A stretch of DNA of 16,435 nt. It comes from a virus. Lineage: Duplodnaviria; Heunggongvirae; Uroviricota; Caudoviricetes. How positions within the stretch are numbered: position 1 is the first letter of the stretch; each line of letters begins with the position of its first letter. This document shows, piece after piece, positions 1,358 through 16,435 of the stretch. The notes below the pieces were generated by a model that ran no database searches, was not told the origin of the DNA, and worked only from the letters and a program-made list of their open reading frames with translations. The translations under genes and the position numbers were made by a program. Location: the IMG/VR virus record IMGVR_UViG_2690315742_000009, positions 1 to 16,435 of that record; one strand, 5' to 3'.

Positions 1358-1418
1358 GGCTATCACTCCGGAACGCGCCAGTTGCAGAATATCAACGACA
1401 ACTGGCGACGGTTGAACA

Positions 1419-3860: not shown

Positions 3861-3953
3861 TATTGGTAAACCTCATCACAGATTTAAGGGTGAACAAATC
3901 TCTGCCATTGCTGACATATAAGAATGAAACTGGATATTTATTACGGTGCTGTT

Positions 3954-4145: not shown

Positions 4146-4330
4146 TGTGCACATCCTTTTGGCATCAGACGTAAACGGGCCAGCATTGAAACAATGCATA
4201 CTTTATTTAATAACTCCCGTTCGTGTTTTCTTTTGTTAATGGCATCTTCAGTAAATACAGGATTACTGATAGTGACACCAATTTCAAAACAACCTTCAGA
4301 CGTATTAACGTTTGGTAATAACGTTTTCAT
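4142..4330 (-). CDS. dicB: Cell division inhibitor DicB (62 aa)
   Basis: ATG at 4328-4330 with GAGGG about 7 nt upstream; the track's GTG at 4435 is an upstream extension. Protein MKTLLPNVNTSEGCFEIGVTISNPVFTEDAINKRKHERELLNKVCIVSMLARLRLMPKGCAQ matches recalled DicB of the Qin dicBF operon. Lies immediately downstream of DicF. Confidence 0.75.
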   Translation of the reverse strand: MKTLLPNVNTSEGCFEIGVTISNPVFTEDAINKRKHERELLNKVCIVSMLARLRLMPKGCAQ

Positions 4331-4503
4331 TATCGCGCCCTCAACAATGAGTTTTGTGATGCGGTGCCTGGTGCCTCCAGGTGACGTTAACCAGTTAACA
4401 ATTAACGCCGGATACAGAGAATCCACCCATAACACTGTTTTTGGTTTTAACTGTTCCGCGTGCGCTTAGCCGCATTCACCGCATCACAAAATTCACTTTA
4501 AAA

Positions 4504-4556
4504 AGGGCGGCAGAGCAGTCACGGAGTAAAACTGATACCGCCAAACGTCACCAGAA
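4504..4556 (-). ncRNA. dicF: DicF small RNA (53 nt)
   Basis: Minus strand reads TTTCTGGTGACGTTTGGCGGTATCAGTTTTACTCCGTGACTGCTCTGCCGCCC followed by TTTT, which matches the 53-nt E. coli DicF sequence as I recall it. Contains a GC-rich terminator stem (GGCGG...CCGCC) and sits between a ydfC-like ORF and dicB as in the Qin operon. Confidence 0.8.
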
Positions 4557-4898
4557 AATTGATAACAGAGGGCGTTGCAGTGGGGTTGTCACTTAAGCGT
4601 ATGGTCAACCTGACAACCCGGTGTCCTCAACGGGGGAAGGAATAACCCCGCCATACTTACCGCCGCGCCATTTCGCGGATTGCCACAACCGGAAGCGCAC
4701 GGTCGACGAAAATTTAACGACAGGCTATCTATGAACCAGCTACCTCGCCGTGCGCTTTCGCGTTATGGTCTGACTTTTCAGGGAAATATCCTTTCAGTAA
4801 ACTGTCAGTGCCGGATGCTCACCCGTGTCCGGCGCACGCACTCCACCTCACCCGTGGAGAACTCCTTAATTACCAACCTTAGCTTCGTTGGTTAGCTA

Positions 4899-5117
4899 TT
4901 AACGCTGGTATGTAATCATTCTGGCAATGCTTAATGCCGCTGCTTTTTCCAGCCTGGTGATATCCTGCTCCAGAGCGGACAGATTTTCAGCCTGCTTAGC
5001 CCTGGCTTCATTGGCCCATTTCAGATCCTGCGCTGCATTAATTTTCTGGCGCATCCACTCATAAAGTTCATCATCGGTATAGTCTGGCGCGATGATGACG
5101 GGTTCTCGTTTCTGCAT
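4899..5117 (-). CDS. Small protein in ydfC position of the dicBF operon (72 aa)
   Basis: ATG at 5115-5117 preceded by a strong SD (AAGGAG, 7-nt spacer). Same length and operon position as Qin YdfC; sequence identity not verified. Confidence 0.6.
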   Translation of the reverse strand: MQKREPVIIAPDYTDDELYEWMRQKINAAQDLKWANEARAKQAENLSALEQDITRLEKAAALSIARMITYQR

Positions 5118-5188
5118 GTCGGCTCCTTGTGGTTAGCGTTGCCTGCTTTTAACCACGTCAGGCGAGGTGGTATCCTCTGAGGGGTCTG

Positions 5189-5545
5189 TTACTCGAGAGG
5201 AAATTGGTTATGAATACAATCAAGTTTTCTTGCCCAGAATGTGGTGGCGAAGTCTTTGACACATCCTTTAAGCCGCAGGGCTCTGACAGTTTCGCGGGAG
5301 CCATCTGCAAAAATTGTGGTCACCTTGTAACTGAAGATGAGTCCTCGCAGTTCGATGACGAAATCGTTGACAATATCTTCGGTGCACTCACCAGAGACTT
5401 TCTGAAATAAAGACGCATACCGCTTAGTTACCGCTCTGATAACTCTTACCTGTCCGGCAATGGCGCTGATGTCAATATAAAGCGCCATTGCTGCTTCTTT
5501 GCCGATCCCGTGATGCCTTCCATTCTGATGTTTGACTTCGCCCAC
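5189..5545 (-). CDS. Hypothetical protein (118 aa from GTG, or 99 aa from ATG at 5488); competing call with the plus-strand ORF 5210..5410
   Basis: Co-directional with the early-left operon. GTG at 5543-5545 preceded by AGAGGA (9 nt). Codon first-position G is about 44 percent in the non-overlapping part 5411-5545. Lies where ydfA/ydfB-type genes would be expected by synteny. It shares exact codon triplets in antisense with the plus-strand zinc-ribbon ORF, so one of the two is probably an artifact. Confidence 0.35.
   Translation of the reverse strand: MGEVKHQNGRHHGIGKEAAMALYIDISAIAGQVRVIRAVTKRYASLFQKVSGECTEDIVNDFVIELRGLIFSYKVTTIFADGSRETVRALRLKGCVKDFATTFWARKLDCIHNQFPLE
5210..5410 (+). CDS. 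Small acidic zinc-ribbon protein (66 aa); competing call with the minus-strand ORF 5189..5545
   Basis: ATG at 5210 with GAGAGG about 10 nt upstream. Two CxxCG knuckles 20 residues apart (CPECGG ... CKNCGH) form a canonical zinc-ribbon signature; acidic C-terminus. Opposite in orientation to the surrounding operon. Confidence 0.4.
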   Translation: MNTIKFSCPECGGEVFDTSFKPQGSDSFAGAICKNCGHLVTEDESSQFDDEIVDNIFGALTRDFLK

Positions 5546-5727
5546 TGAGAAATCCTCTGTTTCCCCTTAACGCCGGGGTAGCGGAACAAAAACCTGCTGC
5601 ATAGTTAAAGTTGAACCCTGCCGTCATGTTCTTACGCCTCGGGCTGGCTACTTAACCCCTGACCACTGCCTGGTAACTCGAAGTATTGCCCTGCATTCTG
5701 TGGGGCGGGGTGGGTTGGTATGTTGTT

Positions 5728-5756
5728 AAGGTAACAAGAGTTACCTTTAGAGTCAA
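5728..5756 (-). promoter_or_regulatory. pL-like early leftward promoter with overlapping repressor operator
   Basis: Minus strand reads TTGACT, 17-nt spacer, TACCTT. An 18-bp perfect palindrome AGGTAACAAGAGTTACCT (plus 5729-5746) overlaps the spacer and -10. Sits just downstream of the repressor gene terminator, facing the dicBF-exo-xis-int operon. Confidence 0.5.
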
Positions 5757-5786
5757 TACAATGTTGCAAAAGGTACATTTGAGGGC

Positions 5787-5811
5787 ATAAAAAACCCGCA
5801 ATGAATGCGGG
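5787..5811 (-). terminator. Rho-independent terminator after the repressor gene
   Basis: Minus strand CCCGCA-TTCAT-TGCGGG followed by TTTTTTAT; 6-bp GC-rich stem immediately after the repressor stop codon (5819-5821). Confidence 0.7.
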
Positions 5812-5818
5812 TTCTGAC

Positions 5819-6493
5819 TCAGTCTAAGTATTGATGTATTTGTGAAACTTTACCTTTAATGGTGTAACCACCATTCAGTTCGATGGGTTTGTAAAGCGGA
5901 TTCAGTGACAACAGATAGATGTTTGGTCCGTCAATCGCAACTTTTTTTAGTGTTACGTTTGGCGTTCCTTCCAATTGGATTAAGATTATTTTTCCCACCA
6001 GTTCTCTAATGTTACTTGAGCATGGTGTGATCAGCACGGTAGATCCGTCGGGGATGGTTGGGAGGCCGTTAGAGTTTGTCATCGCATCTCCCTCAACATG
6101 CAATAAAAAAGAGTTTTCAGCGGTTTTTGTCATGACATCAACCCAATTCTTAATACCAGGAATCTCGGTTACTGGACAACTCATATCCCAATAACCAGCC
6201 TGTTCCCACGTTAAAACGGGCAACCGGGCGATGTTGTCACTAATGTAAGGGTACTGATTCAGACGCAGATCATCGGTTTTATCGTGACAGTCCTTTCCAT
6301 AAAGAATCCATTCAGGAGATTTGGAAAGCAATTTTGACAGTAGATGCAAATTCTCACCGTCAGGTTTTGAAGAGCCATTTTCCCATTTTGTTACGGATAC
6401 ACGAGATATGCCGATTGCTTTCGCAACCTGCTGTTGGGTTAATCCAACGTCTTTTCGACGATTCCGAATACGTTCGCTGATAGTGTTTTTCAT
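5819..6493 (-). CDS. cI-like prophage repressor (N-terminal XRE-type HTH plus C-terminal S24/LexA-like peptidase domain)
   Basis: HTH signature LTQQQVAKAIGISRVSVTKWENG near the N-terminus and a LexA/cI-like C-terminal domain. Preferred start is ATG at 6491-6493 (224 aa, no SD, operator abutting, suggesting a leaderless transcript as for lambda cI). Alternative ATG at 6536; the track's TTG at 6592 would overlap the cro-like start. Confidence 0.85.
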   Translation of the reverse strand: MKNTISERIRNRRKDVGLTQQQVAKAIGISRVSVTKWENGSSKPDGENLHLLSKLLSKSPEWILYGKDCHDKTDDLRLNQYPYISDNIARLPVLTWEQAGYWDMSCPVTEIPGIKNWVDVMTKTAENSFLLHVEGDAMTNSNGLPTIPDGSTVLITPCSSNIRELVGKIILIQLEGTPNVTLKKVAIDGPNIYLLSLNPLYKPIELNGGYTIKGKVSQIHQYLD

Positions 6494-6509
6494 GTAACCA
6501 ATGTTACTA
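6492..6509. promoter_or_regulatory. Operator-like palindrome (ATGTAAC-CAAT-GTTACTA) at the repressor start; PRM-like region
   Basis: Third copy of GTAAC-N4-GTTAC, directly abutting the repressor ATG. A TAACAT -10-like hexamer lies 7 nt upstream of the ATG on the minus strand. Confidence 0.45.
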
Positions 6510-6528
6510 CCAAGTGATGTTGCTATGG

Positions 6529-6558
6529 TTGACATTGCTATGTAACTATTGTTACCCT
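6529..6558 (+). promoter_or_regulatory. pR-like early rightward promoter with overlapping operator
   Basis: TTGACA (6529-6534), 18-nt spacer, TACCCT (6553-6558). Palindrome GTAACTATTGTTAC (6542-6555) overlaps the spacer and -10, mirroring the pL-like architecture. SD AGGAG and the cro-like ATG follow at 6585. Confidence 0.5.
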
Positions 6559-6584
6559 CCCGCTCGAAATAACAGGAGAGTTTT

Positions 6585-6797
6585 ATGTTCAAAGATGATG
6601 TTCTGCGCTATTTCAAAAAAAAGCGACTAGTAGCTGAGGCTCTTGGAATTTCACATGTGGCTGTTGTGCGGTGGAAAGCAGTTATTCCCAAACTTCGCGC
6701 AATGGAACTGGATGAAATTACTAACGGTGAATTGAAATACAACCCAGAACTTTACAAGAAGCAGGATAGCACCTCGAACGAAGGAAAGAATGATTAA
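6585..6797 (+). CDS. Cro/DicC-like small HTH regulator (70 aa)
   Basis: Divergent from the repressor; AGGAG 7 nt upstream of ATG. Sequence pattern (LRYF...LVAEALGISHVAVVRWKA...RAMELDEITNGELKYNPELY) resembles DicC/YdaS-type Cro-like proteins from memory. Stop overlaps the next gene's start by 1 nt. Confidence 0.75.
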   Translation: MFKDDVLRYFKKKRLVAEALGISHVAVVRWKAVIPKLRAMELDEITNGELKYNPELYKKQDSTSNEGKND

Positions 6798-7222
6798 TGA
6801 AAATCAAGCATGAACACATCCGCATGGCGATGAATGCCTGGGCGCATCCGGACGGCGAAAAAGTACCGGCTGCGAAAATTACCAAAGCGTATTTCGAGCT
6901 GGGAATGACGTTCCCGGAACTGTATGACGACAGCCATCCGGAAGCCCTGGCTCGCAATACTCAGAAAATATTCCGCTGGGTGGAGAAAGACACCCCTGAT
7001 GCTGTTGAAAAAATTCAGGCGTTGTTACCAGCGATCGAAAAAGCAATGCCACCTCTGCTGGTGGCCCGAATGCGCAGCCACAGTTCAGCCTATTTTCGGG
7101 AGCTGGTGGAGATGCGGGAACGACTGGTGAGAGACGCTGATGATTTTGTCGCAGTGGCGATCGCTGGTTTCAATCAGATGAATCGTGGTGGTCCGGCGGG
7201 AAATGCCGTGGTGGTGCATTGA
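6797..7222 (+). CDS. cII-position regulator (YdaT-like, 141 aa)
   Basis: Translationally coupled to the cro-like gene (TAATG overlap). Sits between cro-like and replication genes, i.e. the cII position. N-terminus MKIKHEHI resembles Rac YdaT as I recall it; unverified. Confidence 0.55.
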   Translation: MKIKHEHIRMAMNAWAHPDGEKVPAAKITKAYFELGMTFPELYDDSHPEALARNTQKIFRWVEKDTPDAVEKIQALLPAIEKAMPPLLVARMRSHSSAYFRELVEMRERLVRDADDFVAVAIAGFNQMNRGGPAGNAVVVH

Positions 7223-7243
7223 TAACGTGTTCTGGGGGAGGGG

Positions 7244-8209
7244 ATGAAGCTCCTTTTTGCTGAACGTCCGCTGGTTATAAACACGCAGCTGGCGATGAAA
7301 ATTGGTCTGAACGAAGCCATCGTGTTGCAGCAGCTGCATTACTGGTTGAGAGATACCAGTTCCGGCATGGAATGTGATGGTGTTCGCTGGATTTATAACA
7401 CAACAGAACAATGGCTGGAACAGTTCCCGTTCTGGTCAGAGTCAACGTTAAAACGCGCATTTGCAAGTCTGAAAACGCTGGGGCTTTTGCGTTGCGAAAA
7501 GCTCAACAAATCAAAGCGTGATATGACTAATTTTTACACGATTAATTACGAGAGCGAGCTTTTAGATGGTGGCAAAGTGAACGAATCCATCAGGTCAAAA
7601 TGCGCCGCTCCATCAGGTCAAAATGACACGATGGAAGAGGTCAAAATGGCACGCTCCATTGGTTCAAAACGACCCAATGTCATCGGGTCAAAATGGCCTG
7701 ATGATCTTACAGAGAATACAACAGAGATTACTACAGAGAATAAAAAAACTTCTCGTCCGGAAGCTTCGCAACCGGACATGCAGACGGCTGAACAGGATTT
7801 TTTAAACCGACACCCTGACGCGGTTGTGTTCAGTGCGAAAAAACGCCAGTGGGGCAGCCAGGAAGATTTAGCGTGTGCGCAGTGGATCTGGGGACGAATC
7901 GTGAGTCTTTACGAGCAGGCTGCCAGCGATGATGGCGAAATCATGCGACCGAAAGAACCAAACTGGACTGCATGGGCCAATGATGTGCGCACAATGCGGA
8001 TGCTGGATGGCAGAACTCACAGACAAATTTGCGAAATGTTTGGTCGGGTACAGCGGGATCCATTCTGGGTAAAAAACGTCATGAGCCCGTCAAAGCTTCG
8101 CGAAAAATGGGATGAGCTGGTTATTCGTCTGGGGCGTTCGCCTGTACAGCGTTGCGTGAATCACATTTCTGAACCGGACACCGAAATTCCGCCGGGGTTC
8201 AGGGGGTAA
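7244..8209 (+). CDS. Replication initiator (lambda O-like replisome organizer) with internal origin
   Basis: 321-aa ORF directly upstream of the DnaC-like loader. Five 23-bp-spaced iterons and an AT-rich tract lie inside the coding region, as ori-lambda lies within O. GGAGG sits only about 2 nt from the ATG, so the start is uncertain. Confidence 0.7.
   Translation: MKLLFAERPLVINTQLAMKIGLNEAIVLQQLHYWLRDTSSGMECDGVRWIYNTTEQWLEQFPFWSESTLKRAFASLKTLGLLRCEKLNKSKRDMTNFYTINYESELLDGGKVNESIRSKCAAPSGQNDTMEEVKMARSIGSKRPNVIGSKWPDDLTENTTEITTENKKTSRPEASQPDMQTAEQDFLNRHPDAVVFSAKKRQWGSQEDLACAQWIWGRIVSLYEQAASDDGEIMRPKEPNWTAWANDVRTMRMLDGRTHRQICEMFGRVQRDPFWVKNVMSPSKLREKWDELVIRLGRSPVQRCVNHISEPDTEIPPGFRG
7587..7695. 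repeat. Iteron array: 5 direct repeats of about (CCATCA)GGTCAAAATG with exact 23-bp periodicity; putative replication origin
   Basis: TCAAAA cores at 7596, 7619, 7642, 7665 and 7688. First two copies are identical 16-mers (CCATCAGGTCAAAATG); the others are degenerate (GAGGTCAAAATG, TTGGTTCAAAACG, CGGGTCAAAATG). Confidence 0.7.
7709..7748. repeat. AT-rich tract with three phased ACAGAGA(A/T)TA repeats ending in A7; putative DNA-unwinding element of the origin
   Basis: TACAGAGAATA, ACAGAGATTA and TACAGAGAATAAAAAAA spaced about 11-12 bp apart (helical phasing) immediately downstream of the iterons. Confidence 0.55.
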
Positions 8210-8215
8210 CGGGCT

Positions 8216-8962
8216 ATGAAAAATATTGCGGCAGATGGTGTTCTTGAGCGTATCCGTAAGCTGGCCCCGCAGCATGTAACTGCGGCGTACCGGACAGTGG
8301 ACGAGTGGCGGGAGTGGCAGCTTGCAGAAGGGCGAAAACGTAGCGAGGAGATCAACCGCCAGAATCGCCAGTTACGGGTGGAAAAATTCCTGAATCGTTC
8401 CGGTATCCAGCCGTTGCACCAGAAATGTTCGTTTGCGAATTACCAGGTGCAGAACGACGGACAGCGTCATGCACTCAGCCAGGCGAAGTCCATTGCAGGC
8501 GAACTGATAACCGGGTGCACGAATTTTGTGTTCAGCGGTAAGCCGGGTACCGGAAAGAATCATCTGGCAGCAGCCATTGGCAACCATCTTCTGGCGAAAG
8601 GTCGCAGCGTGATTGTGGTGACGGTGGCGGATGTGATGCTGGCGTTACACGGCAACTACGACAACAAAAACTCAGGCGAAAAATTTTTGCAGGGGTTGTG
8701 TGAAGTTGACCTGCTTATCCTGGATGAAATCGGTATGCAGCGGGATACGCGTAACGAACAGGTCACACTGAACCAGATAGTCGATCGCAGAACGGCCTCG
8801 ATGCACAGCGTCGGGATGCTGACAAACCTGAACCACGCAGCGATGAATACGCTGCTTGGCGAACGCGTGATGGACCGCATGACCATGAACGGTGGTCGCT
8901 GGGTGAATTTTAACTGGGAGAGCTGGCGCCCGAATGTTGGTCAGCCAGGTATTGAAAAGTAA
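8216..8962 (+). CDS. DnaC-like replicative helicase loader (IstB-like AAA+ ATPase)
   Basis: Walker [16 protein letters not shown] and Walker [10 protein letters not shown]; 248 aa; immediately downstream of the O-like gene. Confidence 0.85.
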
Positions 8963-8982
8963 TTTTTACCGGGAGGAAATTT

Positions 8983-9726
8983 ATGGAGACTGTTTTTGAC
9001 GCACTGAAAGCGATGGGAAAAGCCACGTCGGTAGAGCTGGCTGCGCGACTTGATATCAGTCGTGAAGAAGTACTGAACGAGCTGTGGGAACTGAAAAAGG
9101 CTGGTTTTGTTGATAAAAGCGCGTACACCTGGCGTGTGGCTGATAACAACGTTCAGCAGGAACAGCCAGCGCCAGAAGAACAGCCGGAAGAAACCACCAC
9201 GGCGACAGTAGCGAAAATCTCAGAGTGCGATTTAACCGCGACGATTGAACAACGCGGACCACAAACGGCGGATGAACTGGCTACGCTGTTCGGTACAACA
9301 TCCCGCAAAGTGGCTTCAACGCTGGCAATGGCAATCAGCAAAGGTCGTCTGATTCGTGTTAATCAGAACGGTAAATTTCGTTACTGCATGCCGGGCGAGA
9401 ATTTACCAGCAGAGCCGAAAGCGGCATCGGTAGCGGAAACTGATGGTAAAGCCTTTCCTCAGCCTGCATGTGTTGCGTTACCAGTACAGGAAGCTGCAAC
9501 ACAGGAAGATATTAAAACAGAAACTGTGGCGGACATTGTGCAGCCGCTTGAGAAGCGAGTGGATAATCTGGTTCTGCCATCGCTGCGACAGGCAAACCGC
9601 GAACTGCGTCGGGCGAAAAGTGATATCAGGAAATGGGAGCGAGTCTGTGCCGCGCTGCGGGAGCTGAATAAATATCGCGATATTGTCGCCCAGCTTTGCC
9701 AGGAGGCAACCAGTGAGAAAAATTAA
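8983..9726 (+). CDS. Hypothetical protein with two winged-helix-like segments (DUF1627-like, from memory)
   Basis: GGGAGG 7 nt upstream of ATG. Acidic, Q/E/P-rich linker between two HTH-like stretches ([28 protein letters not shown]; [32 protein letters not shown]). Confidence 0.5.
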
Positions 9727-10282
9727 TTATCAGGCGCTACGTGAGATAGCAAAACAGGCAACACAAGGCGAATGGGTCGCATTTATTTCGCCGGGCAAAT
9801 ACGGCACGTACGCCGTGCACACGCCAGGAGATAATCATCACGGAGATATTGTCGACTGGCCTGGATTCGACGGACAGAAAAACGCAGAGAACAACGCTCG
9901 TTATATCGCAGCTTTCAACCCTGAAGTAGTGCAGGCGCTGCTGGATGAACGGGAAGCCCAAAGCAAACGCATTGCAGAACTGGAAGCTAATTTTGCGACG
10001 CTGGCAGTGGAGAATGTGGGGTTAAATAAATTCATTAAGGATGATTGCTTTATTTATACAAGCGATGACATCAGCCCACGCGATGCAAATGGATTCAAGC
10101 CTGAAACGCCAGCTACTGACGCTTTCCTGGTTGATATACAGGCGGTGGCGTTTAACGAGCTTCGCGCGGCGTTTGTCAGGCATGCAAAAGTTGCAGAACT
10201 GGATGATGCCGATACTGTAACGCTTAAGGAAGTGATGGATGCGCTGCTGCATTGTGTAGAACAGCTTCGCGCTCCAGAATAA
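9713..10282 (+). CDS. Ead/Ea22-like protein (189 aa from GTG)
   Basis: AGGAGG (9701-9706) 6 nt upstream of GTG at 9713; the track's TTG at 9683 is less likely. N-terminal motif [19 protein letters not shown] resembles the Ead/Ea22 family from memory. Overlaps the previous gene by 14 nt. Confidence 0.6.
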
Positions 10283-10377
10283 ATAAATTTATCACTGTAA
10301 ATAAAATTTAATCCTTAACCGGAGGGATTTCTACACCCTCAGAACAGCAGGAGGCCACCCGAAAGGGCGGTAGTGAA

Positions 10378-10560
10378 ATGCGAAAGTTCAAAGTAATTAT
10401 TGAAACTGGAATAGCTGGTGGAGATTTTGAGGATGTATTCGAAGTGGACGATGACGCAACACCTGATGAAATTCATGACGAAGCAAAAGAAATTTTCTTT
10501 AACTACTGCAATTACTCATATCACGAAATAAAAGACGAAGAGGAAGAACAAAATGGCTGA
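10378..10560 (+). CDS. Small highly acidic hypothetical protein (60 aa, 19 D/E against 5 K/R)
   Basis: ATG at 10378. An AGGAGG lies 24 nt upstream but is brought closer by a predicted GAAA-loop hairpin between SD and ATG. Stop overlaps the next ORF's start. Confidence 0.45.
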   Translation: MRKFKVIIETGIAGGDFEDVFEVDDDATPDEIHDEAKEIFFNYCNYSYHEIKDEEEEQNG

Positions 10561-10729
10561 TTTTGGTTCAACTAAATATAACGCCAGTTTTGAAGAATGG
10601 CATGAACTGTTAATGGACTATGCAGAGTTACGCGGTGGAAGTGCCGCCGATGCTGAAGCATGGCGTGATGACTATGAAGCAGGAAAAACTCCGGTCGAAG
10701 CATATTGTGATGAGTGGGGCTATGAATGA
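10553..10729 (+). CDS. Small acidic hypothetical protein (58 aa, 15 D/E against 4 K/R)
   Basis: Not in the supplied track (below 60 aa). ATG at 10553 with GAGGAAG upstream, overlapping the previous stop. Its TGA overlaps the next gene's ATG (ATGA). Sequence MADFGSTKYNASFEEWHELLMDYAELRGGSAADAEAWRDDYEAGKTPVEAYCDEWGYE. Confidence 0.45.
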   Translation: MADFGSTKYNASFEEWHELLMDYAELRGGSAADAEAWRDDYEAGKTPVEAYCDEWGYE

Positions 10730-11241
10730 GCGAGATTAATTATCAGGAAGGGCATGAAACGGCAGGGCAGGCAAAACCAGTTGCATGGCGATATCGCTAC
10801 GTGAAAAAAGGCGTTACGGACTTTCAGGAGAAGATGTGGGTTGGTGACTGGAAATATGTACCGACAAAAGAGGATTGCAACGACAGGCCGAGCTATGAGA
10901 TTCAGGCATTATTCACTACCCCGCCAGTCCCGGTGATATCAGAAGGACTGGTTAAAGCCGTGCGCTTTTATGAACAGGTAAAGCGTGAAAATCCGCCAGC
11001 CGAAACAGGAGCATGGAAAGACGCTGTTGACTGGGTGCTCAAAGAGGCCTGCTGTGCTGTCATTCTGGGTAAAGCCGACAATCCACTAGCATCCAGTAAT
11101 CAGGTTGGCGAATTAACAATGTGGGTTAAACGACTGGTCAGTCAACTGAAAAAAGCTAATCCAGACTGCAAATTACCGGAGATGGCGATGCATTACCTGA
11201 AACGAAATGGACTGATAAGCGTGGAGGATGTTTTACGATGA
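10726..11241 (+). CDS. Hypothetical protein (171 aa) with Ead/Ea22-like N-terminal motif
   Basis: ATG coupled to the upstream ORF (ATGA). N-terminus SEINYQEGHETAGQAKPVAW parallels the N-terminus of the 9713..10282 protein. Confidence 0.6.
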   Translation: MSEINYQEGHETAGQAKPVAWRYRYVKKGVTDFQEKMWVGDWKYVPTKEDCNDRPSYEIQALFTTPPVPVISEGLVKAVRFYEQVKRENPPAETGAWKDAVDWVLKEACCAVILGKADNPLASSNQVGELTMWVKRLVSQLKKANPDCKLPEMAMHYLKRNGLISVEDVLR

Positions 11242-11321
11242 CCTGGCCTGAGGCATTTACAACGGCAGGAATTGCAATGGCGGCGGCGCTGGTGGTGTAT
11301 TCGATTTGCCGCTGGGGATAA
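11238..11321 (+). CDS. Possible 27-aa hydrophobic peptide (MTWPEAFTTAGIAMAAALVVYSICRWG)
   Basis: ATG overlaps the stop of the 171-aa gene (ATGA); single predicted transmembrane-like stretch. Very short, so speculative. Confidence 0.25.
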   Translation: MTWPEAFTTAGIAMAAALVVYSICRWG

Positions 11322-11328
11322 AAACGGT

Positions 11329-11356
11329 TTGCGGGAAAAGGAGAGTTAAGTAGAAT
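11329..11356 (+). promoter_or_regulatory. Candidate promoter of the hok mRNA
   Basis: TTGCGG, 16-nt spacer, TAGAAT. The predicted start (about 11361-11365) coincides with a 5' element (GCGGGTGCTTGAGG, 11361-11374) that is complementary to the mRNA 3' end. Confidence 0.4.
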
Positions 11357-11475
11357 TGCAGCGGGTGCTTGAGGCTATCTGTCTCAGGCATGAACACCAA
11401 AAGGCAGATAGAGAAAAGCCCCAGTTAACATTACGCGTCCTGCAAGACGCTTAACATTAATCTGAGGCCATATCT

Positions 11476-11535
11476 ATGCGACACATAGAGATTAGCCTCT
11501 TACGGACCGAAAGGTCAAGGAGAAGCAGGCTATGA
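11476..11535 (+). CDS. Short upstream reading frame coupled to hok (mok-like, 19 codons)
   Basis: ATG at 11476; its TGA overlaps the hok ATG (ATGA). Analogous to mok-dependent translational coupling in hok/sok loci, but much shorter than classical mok. Confidence 0.3.
   Translation: MRHIEISLLRTERSRRSRL
11489..11518 (-). promoter_or_regulatory. Candidate promoter for a Sok-like antisense RNA
   Basis: Minus strand TTGACC (plus 11513-11518), 18-nt spacer, TAATCT (plus 11489-11494). Predicted antisense start near 11482, reading across the start of the upstream coupled frame. Confidence 0.4.
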
Positions 11536-11687
11536 AGCAGCAAAAGGCGATGTTAATCGCCCTGATCGTCATCTGTTTAACCGTCATAGTGACGGCACTG
11601 GTAACGAGGAAAGACCTCTGCGAGGTACGAATCCGAACCGGCCAGACGGAGGTCGCTGTCTTCACAGCTTACGAACCTGAGGAGTAA
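11532..11687 (+). CDS. hokD: Hok/Gef-family type I toxin (51 aa)
   Basis: AAGGAG SD. Protein MKQQKAMLIALIVICLTVIVTALVTRKDLCEVRIRTGQTEVAVFTAYEPEE has a single transmembrane helix plus a conserved Cys-containing periplasmic tail, and matches my memory of HokD (RelF). Confidence 0.85.
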   Translation: MKQQKAMLIALIVICLTVIVTALVTRKDLCEVRIRTGQTEVAVFTAYEPEE

Positions 11688-11755
11688 GAGACCAGGCGGG
11701 GGAGAAATCCCTCGCCACCTCTGATGTGTCAGGCATCCTCAACGCACCCGCACGT

Positions 11756-11783
11756 AACCCGCTTCGGCGGGTTTTGTTTTTTC
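11756..11783 (+). terminator. Rho-independent terminator of the hok transcript
   Basis: AACCCGC-TTCG-GCGGGTT (UUCG tetraloop, 7-bp stem) followed by TTGTTTTTT. Confidence 0.75.
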
Positions 11784-11854
11784 CTGGCATTCTGGTTTAC
11801 AATTCGCACGCCAGCCTGAACAACTGGCACCTGCTGCGCCAGCAGAGACAACCG

Positions 11855-12127
11855 ATGGCGCACAATACCAAATATCACAATTCTGATACCGACCTTGCCA
11901 GCAGGTGCGGGCTGTGTTCTCACGCATTCAAATATGACTGGTATCAGCACGATCCCTGCACTGAAGAACAGGCCGAATGGCTGATTCATAACTACCGCAG
12001 ACGTGGGTATGAGTTTAAGAAAGCCCTTAGCCTCGACTACCGTCACTGGATAATCTACGTCAGGCTCCCTTATTCCGAACGCCCGCCGCGTCCGTCCCGC
12101 ACATTCCAGCAACGCATCTGGAGGTAA
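11855..12127 (+). CDS. Small Cys/His-containing protein in the position of Qin rem (90 aa)
   Basis: ATG at 11855. The track's upstream start at 11726 would run through the hok terminator hairpin, so I truncated it. Contains CGLCSHAFKYDWYQHDPC. GGAGG near its 3' end serves the next gene. Confidence 0.5.
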   Translation: MAHNTKYHNSDTDLASRCGLCSHAFKYDWYQHDPCTEEQAEWLIHNYRRRGYEFKKALSLDYRHWIIYVRLPYSERPPRPSRTFQQRIWR

Positions 12128-12128
12128 T

Positions 12129-13184
12129 GTGAGGGTATTAGTGACTCCTGAAATTGCTCACCGTCTGGGGATTGTACTTTTCAGGCCCGGTCCTGATGCG
12201 ATGCCTTTGTTTATGCAGGGGCGTGTACTGGTCGAGCCGGAACCAAAAAGCATGCGCGGTCTGCCGTCCGGGGTCGTTCCTGCCGTTCGCCAGCCGCTGG
12301 CGGAAGACAAATCTCTGCTGCCATTTTTCAGCGATGAGCGGGTGATTCGTGCTGCCGGCGGCGCTGGTGCACTGTCTGACTGGCTACTGCGTCATGTCAA
12401 ATCCTGCCAGTGGCCTCATGGTGACTACCATCACAGTGAAACCGTCATACATCGTTACGGTACCGGCGCGATGGTGTTGTGCTGGCACTGCGACAACCAG
12501 CTGCGTGACCAGACCTCCGAATCACTGGAACATCTGGCTCAACAAAACCTGGCAGCATGGATGATTGACGTCATCGGTCACGCAGTAAGCGGTACGCAGG
12601 AGCGTGAATTATCTCTGGCTGAATTATCCTGGTGGGCAGTCCGCAATCAGGTGGCGGACGCGCTACCGGAAGCGGTATTACGTCGTTCGCTGGGGTTGCG
12701 TGCGGAAAAAATCCGCTCAATGTACCGTGAAAGCGACATCGTACCGGGAGAGCAGACCGCCACCAGCATACTGAAGCAGCGCACAAAAAATCTTGCGCCG
12801 CTGCCTCACGCCCACCAGCAAAACCCGCCACAGGAAAAGACGGTGGTCAGCATTGCTGTTGATCCGGAGTCACCGGCTCAGTATCTCCAGCGCCAGAAAC
12901 CACAACGGGAAGAGATGCCTGTATACACGCGCTGGGTAAAAACGCAGAAATGCATGACGTGCGGTAATCAGGCAGATGATCCGCATCACATCATTGGTCA
13001 TGGACTGGGAGGGATGGGAACAAAGGCTGATGATTTGTTTGTTATTCCGCTGTGCCGTAAATGTCATAACGAACTGCACGCCGGGGTAAAAGATTTTGAA
13101 GAAAAACACGGCAGCCAGCTGTTGTTGCTGATTCGTTTTTTAATGCACGCGAGAAATTCGGGTGTCCTGAAGTGGAAAGCATGA
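12129..13184 (+). CDS. DUF968-type protein with C-terminal HNH-like Cys/His motif (YdfU-like)
   Basis: GTG at 12129 with GGAGG 5 nt upstream. C-terminus CMTCGNQADDPHHIIGHGLGG...CRKCHNELH resembles an HNH/zinc-finger nuclease motif. Upstream of rusA, in the nin-region equivalent. Confidence 0.75.
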   Translation: MRVLVTPEIAHRLGIVLFRPGPDAMPLFMQGRVLVEPEPKSMRGLPSGVVPAVRQPLAEDKSLLPFFSDERVIRAAGGAGALSDWLLRHVKSCQWPHGDYHHSETVIHRYGTGAMVLCWHCDNQLRDQTSESLEHLAQQNLAAWMIDVIGHAVSGTQERELSLAELSWWAVRNQVADALPEAVLRRSLGLRAEKIRSMYRESDIVPGEQTATSILKQRTKNLAPLPHAHQQNPPQEKTVVSIAVDPESPAQYLQRQKPQREEMPVYTRWVKTQKCMTCGNQADDPHHIIGHGLGGMGTKADDLFVIPLCRKCHNELHAGVKDFEEKHGSQLLLLIRFLMHARNSGVLKWKA

Positions 13185-13550
13185 ATGACTGAACGCATAG
13201 AATTTGTTTTGCCTTACCCGCCGACGGTGAATACCTACTGGCGACGTCATGGCAATACGTATTTCATCTCGGAGGCCGGAAAGCGTTATCGCCATGATGT
13301 GGCGCTAATTGTTCGCCAGCAGCGGTTGAAATTAAACCTGTCCGGAAGGCTGACGATAAAGATTATTGCAGAGCCACCGGATAAGCGCCGTCGTGACCTG
13401 GACAATATCCTGAAAGCACCACTGGATGCGCTGACGCATGCCGGACTACTCATAGACGACGAGCAGTTTGATGAAATCAATATTGTGCGCGGTCAGCTCG
13501 TTCCTGGTGGGCGGCTGGGGATAAAAATCACAGAACTGGAGTGCGCATGA
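13185..13550 (+). CDS. rusA: RusA Holliday junction resolvase
   Basis: 121 aa. Conserved RusA signature (PPDKRRRDLDNILKAPLDALTHAGLLIDDEQF ... GGRLGIKITE) aligns with E. coli RusA as I recall it. ATG overlaps the upstream stop. Confidence 0.9.
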   Translation: MTERIEFVLPYPPTVNTYWRRHGNTYFISEAGKRYRHDVALIVRQQRLKLNLSGRLTIKIIAEPPDKRRRDLDNILKAPLDALTHAGLLIDDEQFDEINIVRGQLVPGGRLGIKITELECA

Positions 13551-14236
13551 ATAACCAGTATTTACAGTTTGTGCGTGAGCAGCTCATTATCGCCACCGCT
13601 GATTTGAGTGGGGCAACAAAAGGTCAGCTTGAAGCCTGGCAGGAGAATGCCATGTTTGATACAGGGCGTTACAGGCGTAAAAAAATCCGGTACCGAGATG
13701 AAGTGACTGGAAGAATGATAACGCGGGATAGTCCACCGATACCGGGAAAACAATCACTGGCGAAAGGCTCATCAATTGCTCTGGTAAGTCAGGTTGAGTT
13801 TTCGACATCATCATGGCGACGGGCAGTTCTGTCTCTTGAAGAACATCATAAAGCCTGGTTGTTGTGGTGTTACAGCGGGAGTATTTGTTGGGAATATCAG
13901 ATCGCGATAACACAGTGGGCGTGGAATGAATTTAATACTCAATCCGGTACCAGAAAAATTGCAGGGAAAACGCAGGAACGCCTGAAAAAATTAATCTGGC
14001 TGGCGGCGCAGGCATTAAAAGCAGAACTTTTTGGTGGGGAAGGTTATGAATACCAGGAGCTGGCATTACTGGCGGGAGTGACAACTAAAAACTGGTCCAA
14101 AACATTTACTCGTCACTGGGTTGCAATGAAACACATTTTTCACCGACTTGATAGTGAGGCTTTATTGTTTGTAATGAGAACACGTTCAAAACAAAAGGCG
14201 GCATTTTCAAAGCAAAGTGTTGCAAAAGTAGATTGA
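13547..14236 (+). CDS. Putative late-gene antiterminator (Q-like) by position; function unverified
   Basis: 229 aa from ATG at 13547 (GGAG 7 nt upstream, ATGA overlap with the rusA stop). Sits between rusA and a promoter/terminator pair followed by tRNAs and lysis genes, the canonical Q position. Confidence 0.45.
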   Translation: MNNQYLQFVREQLIIATADLSGATKGQLEAWQENAMFDTGRYRRKKIRYRDEVTGRMITRDSPPIPGKQSLAKGSSIALVSQVEFSTSSWRRAVLSLEEHHKAWLLWCYSGSICWEYQIAITQWAWNEFNTQSGTRKIAGKTQERLKKLIWLAAQALKAELFGGEGYEYQELALLAGVTTKNWSKTFTRHWVAMKHIFHRLDSEALLFVMRTRSKQKAAFSKQSVAKVD

Positions 14237-14248
14237 AAGGCATATATT
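14220..14248 (+). promoter_or_regulatory. Candidate late promoter (pR'-like) at the 3' end of the Q-like gene
   Basis: TTGCAA (14220-14225), 17-nt spacer, TATATT (14243-14248); the predicted transcript runs about 70-80 nt into the terminator at 14303-14326. Confidence 0.45.
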
Positions 14249-14302
14249 TCATGCAAATCTGATATTTTGCCGATTTTGTACGTGATGGCAAAAGCAAACA
14301 AA

Positions 14303-14326
14303 ACCCGCCCACAAGCGGGTTTTTTG
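14303..14326 (+). terminator. Rho-independent terminator (tR'-like)
   Basis: ACCCGC-CCACAA-GCGGGT followed by TTTTTTG. Confidence 0.7.
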
Positions 14327-14392
14327 TGCCACTTATCTCGGATAGACATGGTGAATGCGCTGGTGGAGGAGATAAGGGTGATTTTTGAATGC

Positions 14393-14421
14393 TTGCAACA
14401 TTGATTTCGTAACGTTATTAT
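14393..14421 (+). promoter_or_regulatory. Strong sigma70-type promoter of the tRNA array
   Basis: TTGCAA (14393-14398), 17-nt spacer, TATTAT (14416-14421), followed by a GC-rich discriminator (CCTGCGCCC) and the first tRNA 9 nt downstream. Confidence 0.55.
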
Positions 14422-14430
14422 CCTGCGCCC

Positions 14431-14506
14431 GGCCCTTTAGCTCAGTGGTGAGAGCGAGCGACTCATAATCGCCAGGTCGCTGGTTCAAATCCAGCAAGGG
14501 CCACCA
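14431..14506 (+). tRNA. tRNA with CAU anticodon (Ile2-lysidine type or elongator Met)
   Basis: Hand-folded cloverleaf: acceptor GGCCCTT/AAGGGCC, D-stem GCTC/GAGC, anticodon loop CTCATAA, T-loop TTCAAAT, encoded CCA. Close to E. coli ileX as recalled. Confidence 0.8.
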
Positions 14507-14507
14507 G

Positions 14508-14584
14508 CCGCCACTAGCTCATCAGGAAAGAGCGTCAACCCTTTAAGTTGAGTGTGCGAGGTTCGAGTCCCCGGTGGCGGTCCA
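14508..14584 (+). tRNA. tRNA-like gene with unusual anticodon loop CCTTTAA (nominal anticodon UUU, Lys-type; C at position 33)
   Basis: Cloverleaf folds: acceptor CCGCCAC/GTGGCGG, D-stem GCTC/GAGC, perfect anticodon stem TCAAC/GTTGA, T-loop TTCGAGT, encoded CCA. T-stem has one A-C mismatch and position 33 is C, not the near-universal U. Confidence 0.55.
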
Positions 14585-14586
14585 GT

Positions 14587-14662
<76 letters not shown>

Positions 14663-14665
14663 TAT

Positions 14666-14740
<75 letters not shown>

Positions 14741-14746
14741 GTTAGA

Positions 14747-14792
14747 GTCTTTCAGTCTGCGATGATGGGAAATCCCGGAGTGACTGAAAGAC
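14747..14792. repeat. Perfect 11-bp inverted repeat (GTCTTTCAGTC / GACTGAAAGAC) with 24-nt loop
   Basis: Starts 7 nt after the tRNA-Gly 3' end; the loop contains a GGGAAATCCC mini-hairpin; no clear U-tract. Confidence 0.6.
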
Positions 14793-14801
14793 GTTTAAGT
14801 T

Positions 14802-14870
14802 ATGAATGATCGCCTTTTTTTGCAAAATTGCTGTGCAGAAATACTAACCTTCGGGCAGGCGATCATTCAT
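14802..14870. repeat. Perfect 13-bp inverted repeat (ATGAATGATCGCC / GGCGATCATTCAT) with 43-nt structured loop
   Basis: Loop contains a CC-UUCG-GG tetraloop hairpin and a T7 tract; lies between the tRNA array and the lysis genes. Confidence 0.6.
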
Positions 14871-14950
14871 AAGCACTCTGCTTTTATTCCGATTAACTGT
14901 GGGTGTGGTTTGTTGGATAGAGTGCTTTCCTTTCTGTATATATCGTTTCG

Positions 14951-14973
14951 CCCGCTTTTGCGGTTTTTTCTTT
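14951..14973 (+). terminator. Weak terminator-like hairpin with long U-tract upstream of the holin gene
   Basis: CCCGC-TTTT-GCGG followed by TTTTTTCTTTT; preceded by a promoter-like TTGGAT-17/18-(G)TATAT(A) at 14913-14942. Confidence 0.4.
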
Positions 14974-15034
14974 TCAAATCCCTTTCATTTCTCAGTGTAA
15001 AACTACGCCATCCGTTATTTGCGGAGGTGAGGCT

Positions 15035-15250
15035 ATGAAATCCATGGACAAAATTTCAACGGGCATTGCCTACGGCACCTCCGCAGGCAGTGCTGGCTAC
15101 TGGTTTTTACAGTGGCTTGATCAGGTCAGTCCTTCACAGTGGGCTGCGATTGGTGTACTGGGGAGTCTGGTTCTGGGCTTCCTGACTTATCTGACAAATC
15201 TGTACTTCAAAATCAGAGAAGACAAGCGTAAGGCTGCACGGGGAGAGTAA
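15035..15250 (+). CDS. Class II holin, phage 21 S-type pinholin with dual-start motif
   Basis: GGAGGTGAGG SD. N-terminus MKSMDKI gives two in-frame starts (Met1, Met4) as in the S21 antiholin/holin pair; two transmembrane segments; basic C-terminus. Matches S21/EssQ-like sequence as recalled. Confidence 0.85.
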
Positions 15251-15254
15251 TTCA

Positions 15255-15605
15255 ATGACTCAAAACTATGAACTGATTGTGAAAGGAATCCGCAATTTTG
15301 AGAATAAAGTTACGGTAACTTTAGCGTTACGGGACAAAAAAGGCTTTGACGGTGAAATTTTTGACCTGGACATCTCGCTGGACCGTGTTGAAGGTGCCGC
15401 GCTGGAGTTTTATGAGGCAGCAGCCAGAAGGAGCATCAGACAGGTCTTCCTGGATGTTGCTGCCGGGTTATGTGAAGGGGATGAGCAGTCGCCGGAAAAG
15501 CGCCCCGTAATTTTAGATGCGCAGAATGTTTGGATAACCTACAAAGGAAAGCTACCAGGAAGAATTACTGGTTCTCTGAAGACTCCTCCGGAATCACAAC
15601 CTTAA
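15255..15605 (+). CDS. Hypothetical cytoplasmic protein (116 aa) between holin and endolysin
   Basis: GGGGAGAG SD 8 nt upstream of ATG, 4 nt after the holin stop. No transmembrane or signal sequence; no recognisable motif. Confidence 0.6.
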   Translation: MTQNYELIVKGIRNFENKVTVTLALRDKKGFDGEIFDLDISLDRVEGAALEFYEAAARRSIRQVFLDVAAGLCEGDEQSPEKRPVILDAQNVWITYKGKLPGRITGSLKTPPESQP

Positions 15606-15668
15606 GTCACTGACCGGAACAGATAAACCTGTCCGTGGGCAGAAACCGATAAATCCTGATAAATATCC

Positions 15669-16202
15669 ATGAACGCAAAAATCAGATACGGCCTGTCGGC
15701 TGCCGTTCTGGCACTGATTGCCGTCGGTGCGCCCGCGCCTGATATTCTCGACCAGTTTCTGGATGAAAAAGAAGGTAACCACACAACGGCATACCGCGAT
15801 GGGTCCGGCATCTGGACCATCTGTCGGGGTGCCACGATGGTGGATGGAAAACCCGTTTTTCCCGGTATGAAACTGTCGAAGGAAAAATGCGACCAGGTCA
15901 ACGCCATTGAGCGTGATAAGGCGCTGGCATGGGTGGAGCGCAATATTAAAGTACCACTGACCGAGCCACAAAAAGCCGGTATCGCGTCATTTTGTCCCTA
16001 TAACATTGGCCCCGGTAAGTGTTTTCCGTCGACGTTTTATAAGCGGCTGAATGCTGGTGATCGTAAAGGTGCATGCGAGGCGATTCGCTGGTGGATAAAA
16101 GATGGTGGGCGCGATTGCCGCATACGTTCAAATAACTGCTATGGACAGGTTATTCGTCGTGACCAGGAAAGCGCATTAGCCTGTTGGGGGATAGATCAGT
16201 GA
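15669..16202 (+). CDS. SAR-type endolysin (T4-lysozyme-like muramidase with N-terminal signal-anchor-release segment)
   Basis: N-terminal weakly hydrophobic Gly/Ala-rich segment ([17 protein letters not shown]) followed by an E...D...T catalytic arrangement ([20 protein letters not shown]); 177 aa, typical of phage 21 R-type SAR endolysins. Confidence 0.85.
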
Positions 16203-16435
16203 GCAGAGTCGCCGCGATTATTTATGCTCTGGTTATCTGCATCATCGTCTGCCTGTCGTGGGCGGTCAATCATTACCGTGATAACGCCATCGCCTACAAA
16301 GAACAGCGTGATAAAAAAGTCAGTGAGCTGAAGCTGGCGATCGCCACCATCGCTGACATGCAGCAGCGTCAGCGTGATGTTGCTGCGCTCGATGCAAAGT
16401 ACTCGAGAGAATTAGCCAATGCGCAAGCTGAAAAT
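16199..16435 (+). CDS. Rz-like i-spanin (N-terminal part; continues beyond the window)
   Basis: GTG at 16199 overlapping the endolysin stop. N-terminal transmembrane segment ([18 protein letters not shown]) followed by a charged, coiled-coil-like region. No stop within the window. Confidence 0.6.

Follow-up and report, generated by a model that had tools for sequence, protein, structure and literature searches.

Between the last transfer RNA (tRNA) gene and the lysis cassette of a phage-21/Qin-like lambdoid prophage lies a stretch of about 190 nucleotides (nt) which our analysis well supports as a three-hairpin, modular and conserved RNA structure of the plus strand, forming the 3' trailer of the prophage tRNA array. 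The prophage is a viral DNA of 16,435 nt (IMG/VR record IMGVR_UViG_2690315742_000009, positions 1 to 16,435; Caudoviricetes), called the window here at its full length, and the initial annotation of this DNA had rightly placed the structured region between tRNA-Gly (14666-14740) and the lysis cassette, which opens with a holin gene (15035-15250). We call the three hairpins HP1, HP2 and HP3, the whole the element, and the loci of its relatives by L numbers. Judging from sequence, the element is best classed with the late-leader or tRNA-trailer non-coding RNAs (ncRNAs) of prophages. The explanation that we favour, albeit tentatively and with somewhat less than even confidence, is a stable ncRNA derived from the trailer, similar in principle to the 3' external transcribed spacer (3'ETS) RNAs, which might act through its conserved segments on a protein or RNA partner.

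Both of the stems that prompted this work are real. The perfect stem of 11 base pairs (bp) with a 24-nt loop that had been described at 14747-14792 is exactly what sequence reading and a repeat finder return (HP1, arms GTCTTTCAGTC at 14747-14757 and GACTGAAAGAC at 14782-14792). The 13-bp stem with a 43-nt loop assigned to 14802-14870 is a genuine repeat with a genuine UUCG hairpin inside it, but was measured too short, being the inner part of a perfect 16-bp stem with 41 nt between its arms (HP2, TTATGAATGATCGCCT at 14800-14815 and AGGCGATCATTCATAA at 14857-14872). No other perfect inverted repeat in the 16.4-kb window is as long as this one of 16 bp; the longest imperfect repeat (19 nt, 95% complementary, 110 nt between the arms) is found at 4348-4366 / 4477-4495. 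The earlier statement that stems of this kind are unlikely by chance holds for HP2 and for the fold as a whole, but not for the 11-bp stem taken alone: we estimate that about 0.5 such stems are expected per window and, because another, unrelated 11-bp perfect repeat occurs at 5457-5491, the HP1 stem is not by itself above chance, and is validated through its conservation rather than its length. RNA folding, one of the checks that had been proposed, gave -54 kcal/mol for the 160-nt stretch, more stable than its shuffles (z = -4.56, with none of 200 shuffles as good), and -78.6 kcal/mol (z = -5.26) for the 235 nt that run from tRNA-Gly up to and including a small terminator-like hairpin (14741-14975); the predicted fold of these 235 nt is exactly HP1, HP2, HP3 and that small hairpin. 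HP3, found both by the repeat finder and in the fold (GCACTCT 14873-14879 / AGAGTGC 14919-14925, with an apical helix inside), had been overlooked, as had the terminator-like site and a promoter before the tRNA array. The reported lack of a U-tract after either of the first two stems is confirmed by the sequence, and a terminator scan finds no intrinsic terminator at HP1 or HP2; HP3 is followed in the window by UUUCCUUUC, a true U-run directly after it being seen only in L193 and L195.

The argument for RNA is carried by covariation. Non-identical copies of each hairpin were aligned and their base-pair cells counted, and the cells are paired in 96.5% of cases in the HP1 stem (32 sequences), 93.4% in the HP2 outer stem (35) and 90.5% in the HP3 basal stem (43), with four pairs changed on both sides in each, for example U-A/C-G, C-G/U-A and A-U/G-U/G-C in HP1, and up to three pair types in HP3. 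The inner helix of HP2 (UUUUUGC / GYRRAAA) is paired in 98.8% of its cells, many of them as G-U, and has one both-sides change (a U-A to U-G to C-G series), whilst the apical helix of HP3 combines an invariant 3' strand with a varying 5' strand that mostly can still pair, via A-U/G-U and U-G/C-G. Sliding the 3' partners by 1-3 columns, as a control of register, leaves pairing at 28-52% in all three alignments, and the HP2 outer stem is recovered independently by RNAalifold. An RNA structure had been one option of the initial annotation, and the compensatory changes whose absence it had named as grounds for refutation are present in both of its stems and in the third one. A protein-binding palindrome, its other option, is disfavoured by the same alignments, where the non-Watson-Crick cells of all helices together are mostly G-U (G-T in DNA; 291) as against A-C (88), and several one-sided changes (A-U to G-U, U-G to C-G) preserve pairing only in RNA of the plus strand. 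Because the G-U cells outnumber the A-C cells so clearly, the folded molecule is plus-strand RNA and not a DNA palindrome: selection acts on the structure in RNA of this strand, to which the tRNAs and lysis genes also belong, rather than in duplex DNA or in a transcript of the minus strand.

In addition to the stems, the element conserves what lies between them. In an alignment of the entire element made non-redundant at 95%, four unpaired or half-paired segments, namely CUGCGAUGAUGGG and CCCGGAGUGAC in HP1, UUUUGCAAAAUUGCUGUG in HP2 and GGUUUGUUGG in HP3, are about 90-100% conserved. These segments, GGUUUGUUGG foremost, surpass the stems in conservation, as well as the HP1-HP2 linker and the post-HP3 spacer, these last two diverging freely. 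Seed bias affects the motifs of HP2 and HP3, each of which can be checked on the loci retrieved with the other seed: there GGUUUGUUGG has 3 variants among about 60 unique sequences, and the HP2 loop is more tolerant, with substitutions, deletions and two replacements (the copies with a deletion or a replaced loop are L188, L193, L197 and L145). Conservation of the HP1 loop is free of this bias, because that loop never served as a search seed. That loops are better conserved than stems suggests that a protein or an RNA is contacted in a sequence-specific way. Of the RNA roles proposed earlier, a processing site in the tRNA precursor and a small structured RNA, both fit the position after the last tRNA, and the conserved unpaired segments fit the small RNA better. 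The region is non-coding. Its sole open reading frame (ORF; 14802-15038) has no Pfam match and is annotated as a 'hypothetical protein' in the phage records ON470580 and ON470583; the T-run at 14815-14821 inside it has 6-9 T among near-identical copies, the loops show 1-2-nt indels and, since single-base changes in the length of the T-run break the frame, the ORF is not a conserved gene.

The element is widespread and built from parts. The 294 nt that follow tRNA-Gly are present in 540 of the 5426 complete Escherichia coli genomes (about 10%), always in the chromosome and never annotated, and most of these copies are >95% identical, the one in NZ_CP095820 matching at 100%; four near-identical phage records also have the element, and phage HK639 has it at 75% identity. 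Two pattern scans of IMG/VR with different seed parts yielded >150 loci, and, when one genome per species was scanned, true copies were confined to E. coli, Shigella flexneri, Citrobacter sedlakii, Phytobacter ursingii and Enterobacter quasihormaechei. The late regions of the K-12 prophages Qin and DLP12 lack it, only their tR' terminators being similar. Profile searches of 232 sequences counted 115 loci with HP1-HP2-HP3, 30 with HP2-HP3, 14 with HP3 alone, 4 with HP1-HP2, and one each of HP3...HP1, HP3...HP1-HP2 and HP3...HP1-HP2-HP3; the hairpins are separable modules whose orientation is constant, namely that of late transcription. Nearly all of the tRNA-bearing loci have the element adjoining the last tRNA, at a distance that is constant in more than 100 loci: the first hairpin, be it HP1 or HP2, starts 0-6 nt past the CCA of the last tRNA, be it Gly, Met or Arg (HP1 starts 6 nt past that of tRNA-Gly in the window, and also comes next where tRNA-Met is last), and the end of the tRNA is separated from the end of HP3 by 182-183 nt with HP1 and by 125-127 nt without it. 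At four loci (L004, L039, L078 and L195) unrelated sequence has replaced the tRNA array and the element is retained. Downstream of the element there is always the lysis cassette, at times with a 'moron' before it, and because two families of Q (PF06323, PF06530) and three of holins (PF04971, PF16931, PF05106) accompany the element, it is not tied to one antiterminator or lysis system.

The copies of HP3 that stand alone have a longer basal stem, lie right after pR'-tR' or a gene and before a moron and a lambda-S-type holin in hosts other than E. coli, and have no match in the phage collection or the complete E. coli genomes, occurring only in IMG/VR contigs and one Enterobacter genome. Some phages of hosts other than E. 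coli have such an HP3 after the late promoter and, 0.2-1.3 kb further on, HP1 (with or without HP2 and a second HP3) behind tRNA-Met (L149 12595-12902, L212 978-2478 and L170 5574-6783), so that modules can evidently be duplicated and reordered within one late leader. HK639 has only the 3' half of a tRNA-Gly(UCC), from anticodon loop to CCA, fused before HP1 (L001 ~2943-2992), with an intact tRNA-Asn upstream, immediately after tR'.

The signals at either end may mark one transcription unit. Promoter-like hexamers (TTGCR-17-TAT(C/T)AT with a GC-rich discriminator, often with TG before the -10) are kept 8-9 nt upstream of tRNA-Met where the flanks cannot be aligned and, because they persist in diverged surroundings, they suggest a promoter dedicated to the tRNAs and trailer; they also suggest that the array is expressed in lysogens from its own stringent-type promoter, independently of Q. 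At the far end, a terminator lies 15-40 nt past HP3 in most lineages, and is annotated as such in HK639. Where the window has a 4-bp stem, weakened through one lost G relative to close relatives (GCGG versus GCGGG), the place is taken in relatives by a stronger stem, GCCCGC...GCGGGC, or by strong terminators of unrelated sequence, and in L221 and L223, copies from E. coli and Shigella, the terminator has decayed further.

If the trailer does give rise to a stable ncRNA, we imagine its life as follows. In a lysogen, the sigma-70 promoter before tRNA-Met would transcribe the four tRNAs and the trailer up to the terminator before the holin gene, and in lytic growth the same RNA would be carried within the Q-antiterminated late transcript from pR'. 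Maturation of tRNA-Gly, through an endonucleolytic cut just 3' of the CCA, would free a trailer of about 190-235 nt, whose 5' end would be closed at once by HP1 (or by HP2 in relatives without HP1) and whose 3' end would be a hairpin or terminator and, because it is bounded by such structures at both ends, the freed trailer should be stable. It might then act on a protein or RNA through conserved segments that are exposed or half-exposed, namely CUGCGAUGAUGGG / CCCGGAGUGAC of the HP1 loop, UUGCAAAAUUGCUGUG of the HP2 loop and the strand GGUUUGUUGG of HP3. The niche offers support, being one in which Hfq-bound small RNAs (sRNAs) of prophages are known, and HK639 has the element and the sRNA STnc100 in tandem.

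Several points weigh against a stable trailer ncRNA. Its transcript ends, stability and abundance are all inferred. Most of the double changes separate the two main clades, the window type and the HK639 type, and because of this the number of independent compensatory events is modest; given such a two-clade structure, shuffle controls overstate the significance of the covariation. HK639 has no separate tRNA promoter, the terminator-like site of the window is weak, and the L040 and L004 types have no obvious terminator after HP3. A conserved partner site is lacking in the window, where neither GGUUUGUUGG nor the HP2 or HP1 loop has a near-complement besides its own site, and where duplex scans give only promiscuous G-U-rich pairings, for example with the T-arm of tRNA-Met, which we consider uninformative. 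The terminator aside, there are no typical features of Hfq-dependent sRNAs. Finally, the loci with HP3 alone have no tRNA and mostly no close downstream terminator (L156 has one), and these are a better fit to a cis element of the late leader than to a trailer sRNA.

A bolder alternative, which we think rather unlikely, is that the element represents a new 'moron' RNA family, expressed constitutively from the tRNA-type promoter in lysogens and having the host or competing phages as its targets in trans. The invariant G/U-rich GGUUUGUUGG might then pair with C/A-rich sites, or the RNA might be a decoy or regulator for RNA-targeting nucleases, jointly with the hypervariable second tRNA of the array. 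Were this true, the tRNA array and its trailer would constitute an RNA-based cassette for host manipulation or counter-defence in about 10% of complete E. coli genomes.

The main rival to the stable trailer ncRNA, which we rank below it and think on balance unlikely, though still deserving of serious attention, is a processing and stability module that works in cis and has no function in trans. Its hairpins would set the cut in the precursor after the last tRNA, cap the 5'-monophosphate of the downstream lysis/late mRNA against 5'-end-dependent RNase E, and block 3' exonucleases from entering the tRNAs. It is established that mRNAs of E. coli gain stability from a stem-loop at the 5' end, and that the fragment downstream of an excised tRNA is left with a 5'-monophosphate. 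A module of this kind would account for the position of the first hairpin just past the CCA, whichever hairpin or tRNA is concerned, for stems held by covariation, for an orientation that is always that of late transcription, for the lone HP3 with which the late leader opens in phages without tRNAs, and for terminators after HP3 that are not universal. However, generic hairpins need no conserved loops, and here the loops and the 3' strand of HP3 are most conserved while the stems drift and compensate; three hairpins in a row plus a terminator exceed what end protection needs, and the element persists at the four loci where the tRNA array has been replaced. Rather doubtful, and slightly more so than a moron RNA, is a cis-regulatory leader (a riboregulator or attenuator) of the lysis cassette, in which a factor bound to the loops or to GGUUUGUUGG would modulate downstream termination, RNase cleavage or translation. 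The constant place upstream of the lysis cassette (or of moron and cassette), with at least three holin and two Q families, would suit such a leader, as would the apical helix of HP3, where an invariant strand with a variable partner resembles a sequestered recognition site, the possible likeness of GG/UUU to the RNase E motif RN/WUU, and the terminator-like combination of HP3 and a direct U-run in L193 and L195. On the other hand, Q-modified RNA polymerase ignores terminators, so that an attenuator would be relevant only to transcripts that are not antiterminated; neither the distance to the holin start nor the intervening sequence is conserved, no alternative (switching) pairing was found, and no ligand- or protein-binding motif was recognised, with Rfam giving no match.

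It is also conceivable, but improbable, that the element has no function of its own and is a decaying remnant (a pseudo-tRNA, a dead moron or a small ORF) that hitch-hikes with the tRNA array. Much of the conservation in E. coli does reflect recent common descent, most copies being >95% identical, a hypothetical ORF is annotated here in two phage records, and some copies have deletions or a replaced HP2 loop (L188, L193, L197, L145). A remnant sits poorly, however, with covariation, and with loops conserved beyond linker and spacer, between lineages that share only about 75% identity; no significant similarity links the element to the four tRNAs, and the ORF is broken by the T-run polymorphism and has no Pfam match. 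Least probable of all, and very unlikely in our judgement, is a feature at the level of DNA, either protein-binding palindromes or 'linker' sequences that promote recombination between mosaic phage modules. The modules do lie at junctions where the flanks change abruptly, in varied combinations and orders, as is the case for recombination joints in mosaic lambdoid genomes, and the repeat finder detects a palindrome, TTTTGCAAAA, inside HP2. Compensatory changes, and one-sided changes tolerated only as plus-strand G-U, argue against this, and a dimeric protein site would conserve the sequence of its half-sites and not their complementarity, whereas the arms here covary, which is not expected of linker sequences either.

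How does the element compare with known RNAs? No prior description was found in Rfam 15, RefSeq annotation or the searchable literature: searching for the conserved motifs as text returned only unrelated papers, and papers on HK639 contain nothing on the region. The Rfam search that had been proposed as a check was run with cmscan on 14200-15100, with permissive filters to E = 10, and returned only the four tRNAs and weak IsrJ/IsrK matches at tR', with nothing inside 14741-14975. The library includes AgvB (RF02702), AsxR (RF02703), STnc100 (RF02076), Esr41 (RF02676), IsrJ/IsrK, GcvB and tRNA. In the relatives L001, L212, L227 and L061 there are matches to tRNA and STnc100 beside the element and none on the element proper, the only overlap being a sub-threshold istR match at its 3' end (L001 3130-3210, 26 bits versus a gathering score of 45).

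By analogy, the closest counterparts in principle would be the trailer sRNA 3'ETS(leuZ) and the stable RNAs of the phage T4 tRNA cluster. The former is a sponge sRNA, reportedly from the 3'ETS of the glyW-cysT-leuZ tRNA operon, which Lalaouna and colleagues are said to have described in 2015. The element resembles it in being non-coding RNA that immediately follows, on the same strand, the last tRNA of an operon, and may do so too in being co-transcribed with the tRNAs, freed by tRNA 3' processing and ended at the operon terminator. It differs in being unrelated in sequence, prophage-borne, about 190-235 nt long and formed of three long covarying hairpins, whereas 3'ETS-leuZ itself has a short single-stranded sponge site and a terminator. 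The T4 'species 1 and 2' (rnaC, rnaD) are structured non-tRNA RNAs matured from a tRNA precursor, and so share with the element an association with a phage tRNA gene cluster; T4, however, is a virulent myovirus with these RNAs inside its cluster, whereas the element follows the last tRNA in a temperate lambdoid phage, and the likeness is one of description. A case related to 3'ETS-leuZ is that of the sRNAs in the trailers of rrn operons (PMC8144298).

Closer to home, the stretch between pR' and the lysis genes is where Hfq-bound sRNAs of prophages map (PMC4104026, PMC8550237, bioRxiv 10.64898/2026.05.13.724894). STnc100/PasD (RF02076; EcOnc13 in enterohaemorrhagic E. coli) is a prophage sRNA that, at about 170-200 nt, shares with the element its Q/pR'-lysis niche and its strand and has an intrinsic terminator at its end, but the element has neither a match to RF02076 nor nhmmer or blastn similarity to PasD2, and the window itself has no STnc100. 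In HK639, STnc100 follows directly downstream of the terminator of the element (L001 3254-3459), the two forming a tandem in which each has its own terminator, and before the holin comes another non-coding stretch, of about 150 nt and delimited by terminators (L001 3456-3640); as the three adjoin, the late leader of HK639 is a tandem array of terminator-bounded non-coding units. In L061, STnc100 occurs twice beside the element, at 6582-6704 and 6905-7118 (minus strand). The regulatory RNAs AgvB/AsxR (anti-sRNAs; RF02702, RF02703; Tree et al. 2014, PMC4104026) and PasA/PasC (Pearl Mizrahi et al. 2021, PMC8550237), likewise prophage-encoded, share with the element a 'moron' site downstream of pR' and beside the holin/lysozyme operon, but are 51-85 nt long, convergent to late transcription and composed of one terminator hairpin and a variable seed, whereas the element is on the strand of the late transcript, three times longer and without a sequence or covariance-model match to them. 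Neither nhmmer with the HP1, HP2 and HP3 profiles nor blastn with the window and HK639 versions matched PasA, PasC or PasD2, located by their published coordinates in the enteropathogenic E. coli strain E2348/69 (NC_011601, 738500-745000 and 1288500-1292500). The put RNAs of HK022 and HK639 (PMC9378689) are about 70 nt, have two stem-loops, lie just past the early promoters and drive read-through of terminators. Like them, the element is a cis-encoded phage RNA with adjacent stem-loops between a promoter and downstream terminators, and HK639 carries both kinds; unlike them, it is about 190 nt long, has three hairpins and lies in the late leader after tR'. The HK639 genome has a single place similar to the element, so that the put site is not a relative at the sensitivity of blastn, and put-like read-through here would express the lysis genes in the lysogen from the constitutive tRNA promoter.

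A number of other candidates were tried and rejected. Neither ARAGORN nor the Rfam tRNA model finds a tRNA or pseudo-tRNA in 14741-14930, and the idea that HP1 is a degenerate copy of tRNA-Gly fails because its alignment (p = 0.09; tRNA-Lys p = 0.04) is not significant among 12 tests, in which the element and the four tRNAs gave p = 0.04-0.99 per pair. Kinship with GcvB had been prompted by the G/U-rich HP3 and by a 10-nt identity, GGUCUGCGAU, shared by HK639-type HP1 and stem-loop 2 of E. coli gcvB, but that identity has a shuffle p of 0.12 with no wider similarity, and local alignments give p = 0.12-0.31. An sRNA candidate of enteropathogenic E. coli beside a pseudo-tRNA-Gly (the E2348C_ncR36-2757 intergenic region) is unrelated in sequence. 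A possible internal promoter in the HP2 loop (TTGCAA-16-TACTAA) has a -10 without T at position 6 and does not appear in the promoter scan, and a convergent minus-strand sRNA of the type seen by Tree et al. 2014 is contradicted by the lack of a minus-strand U-tract after any hairpin and by the ratio of G-U to A-C cells, which favours the plus strand.

Why might this matter? The stretch between Q and the lysis genes of the well-studied lambdoid prophages of E. coli, a known home of toxins and regulatory sRNAs, gains another defined unit, one that is supported by covariation, unannotated (no RefSeq feature and no Rfam family), present in several Enterobacteriaceae besides E. coli, and linked to the tRNA arrays of phages, which are actively debated as to whether they serve codon supply or escape from anticodon nucleases. 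If a stable RNA, it would represent a new family of ncRNAs in prophages and add a second naturally occurring functional trailer of a tRNA operon; if a cis element, it would show how phages insulate their late mRNA from the cleavage imposed by tRNA excision. Either way, the defined stems, loops and natural variants provide a concrete construct for testing.

The features of the window around the element are collected in Table 1. Upstream, the gene order is YdfU/DUF968, RusA, Q, and after the element it is P21-type holin, then YdfR and lysozyme.

Table 1. Position and basis of the element and its neighbours in the window
Feature	Position	Strand	Description and basis
Q gene	13541-14236		PF06323
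Late promoter, pR'-like	14220..14248	+	TTGCAA-17-TATATT, at the end of the Q gene; promoter scan
pR' leader RNA	14252..14326	+	ends in the tR' hairpin (~14300-14326); inverted repeat and terminator scan
Putative promoter of tRNAs plus trailer	14393..14421	+	sigma-70-like, TTGCAA-17-TATTAT with GC-rich discriminator, 9 nt before tRNA-Met; promoter scan
tRNA array Met(CAU)-Lys(UUU)-Thr(UGU)-Gly(UCC)	14431..14740	+	ARAGORN, Rfam tRNA matches
tRNA-Gly	14666-14740	+	ARAGORN
HP1	14747..14792	+	11-bp stem; inner GC/GU pairs 14759-60 / 14780-81; apical GGG-AAAU-CCC hairpin 14767-76; conserved loop segments CUGCGAUGAUGGG, CCCGGAGUGAC
HP2	14800..14872	+	16-bp outer stem; inner helix UUUUUGC 14817-23 / GCAGAAA 14835-41; CC-UUCG-GG 14848-14855
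HP2 conserved segment UUUUGCAAAAUUGCUGUG	14818-14835	+	covers 5' strand of inner helix plus loop
HP3	14873..14925	+	basal stem GCACUCU 14873-79 / AGAGUGC 14919-25; apical helix CCGAUUAAC 14889-14897 / GUUUGUUGG 14908-14916
HP3 3' strand GGUUUGUUGG	14907-16	+	nearly invariant in the family
Weak terminator-like site	14950..14974	+	CCGC-UUUU-GCGG, then UUUUUUCUUUU; sequence and fold, under the 5-bp threshold of the scan
Holin S, P21 type	15035..15250	+	first gene of lysis cassette; PF04971, E = 1.4e-35

Some smaller observations concern these neighbours. The second tRNA of the array (14508-14584 in the window) is hypervariable among otherwise similar prophages, in which Met, Thr and Gly are fixed: its versions are Lys(UUU), Arg(UCU), Phe(AAA/GAA), Leu(UAA/CAG), Ile(UAU), Ser(UGA) and a suppressor-like UUA, along with some odd anticodon loops that ARAGORN cannot name, and the tRNA-Lys of the window is the lowest-scoring tRNA of its array (44 bits). 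The pR'-tR' leader (14252-14325) has sub-threshold Rfam matches to the Salmonella sRNAs IsrJ (24.5 bits) and IsrK (22.7 bits), with its HK639 equivalent reaching 34.6 bits versus a gathering score of 37, and IsrJ/IsrK are probably the short pR' transcripts of Gifsy-type prophages. Between tR' and the tRNA promoter there is a Chi site, GCTGGTGG (14359-14366), and the Chi octamer is found at the equivalent place in L010, L015, L105 and L106, where the sequence is otherwise different.

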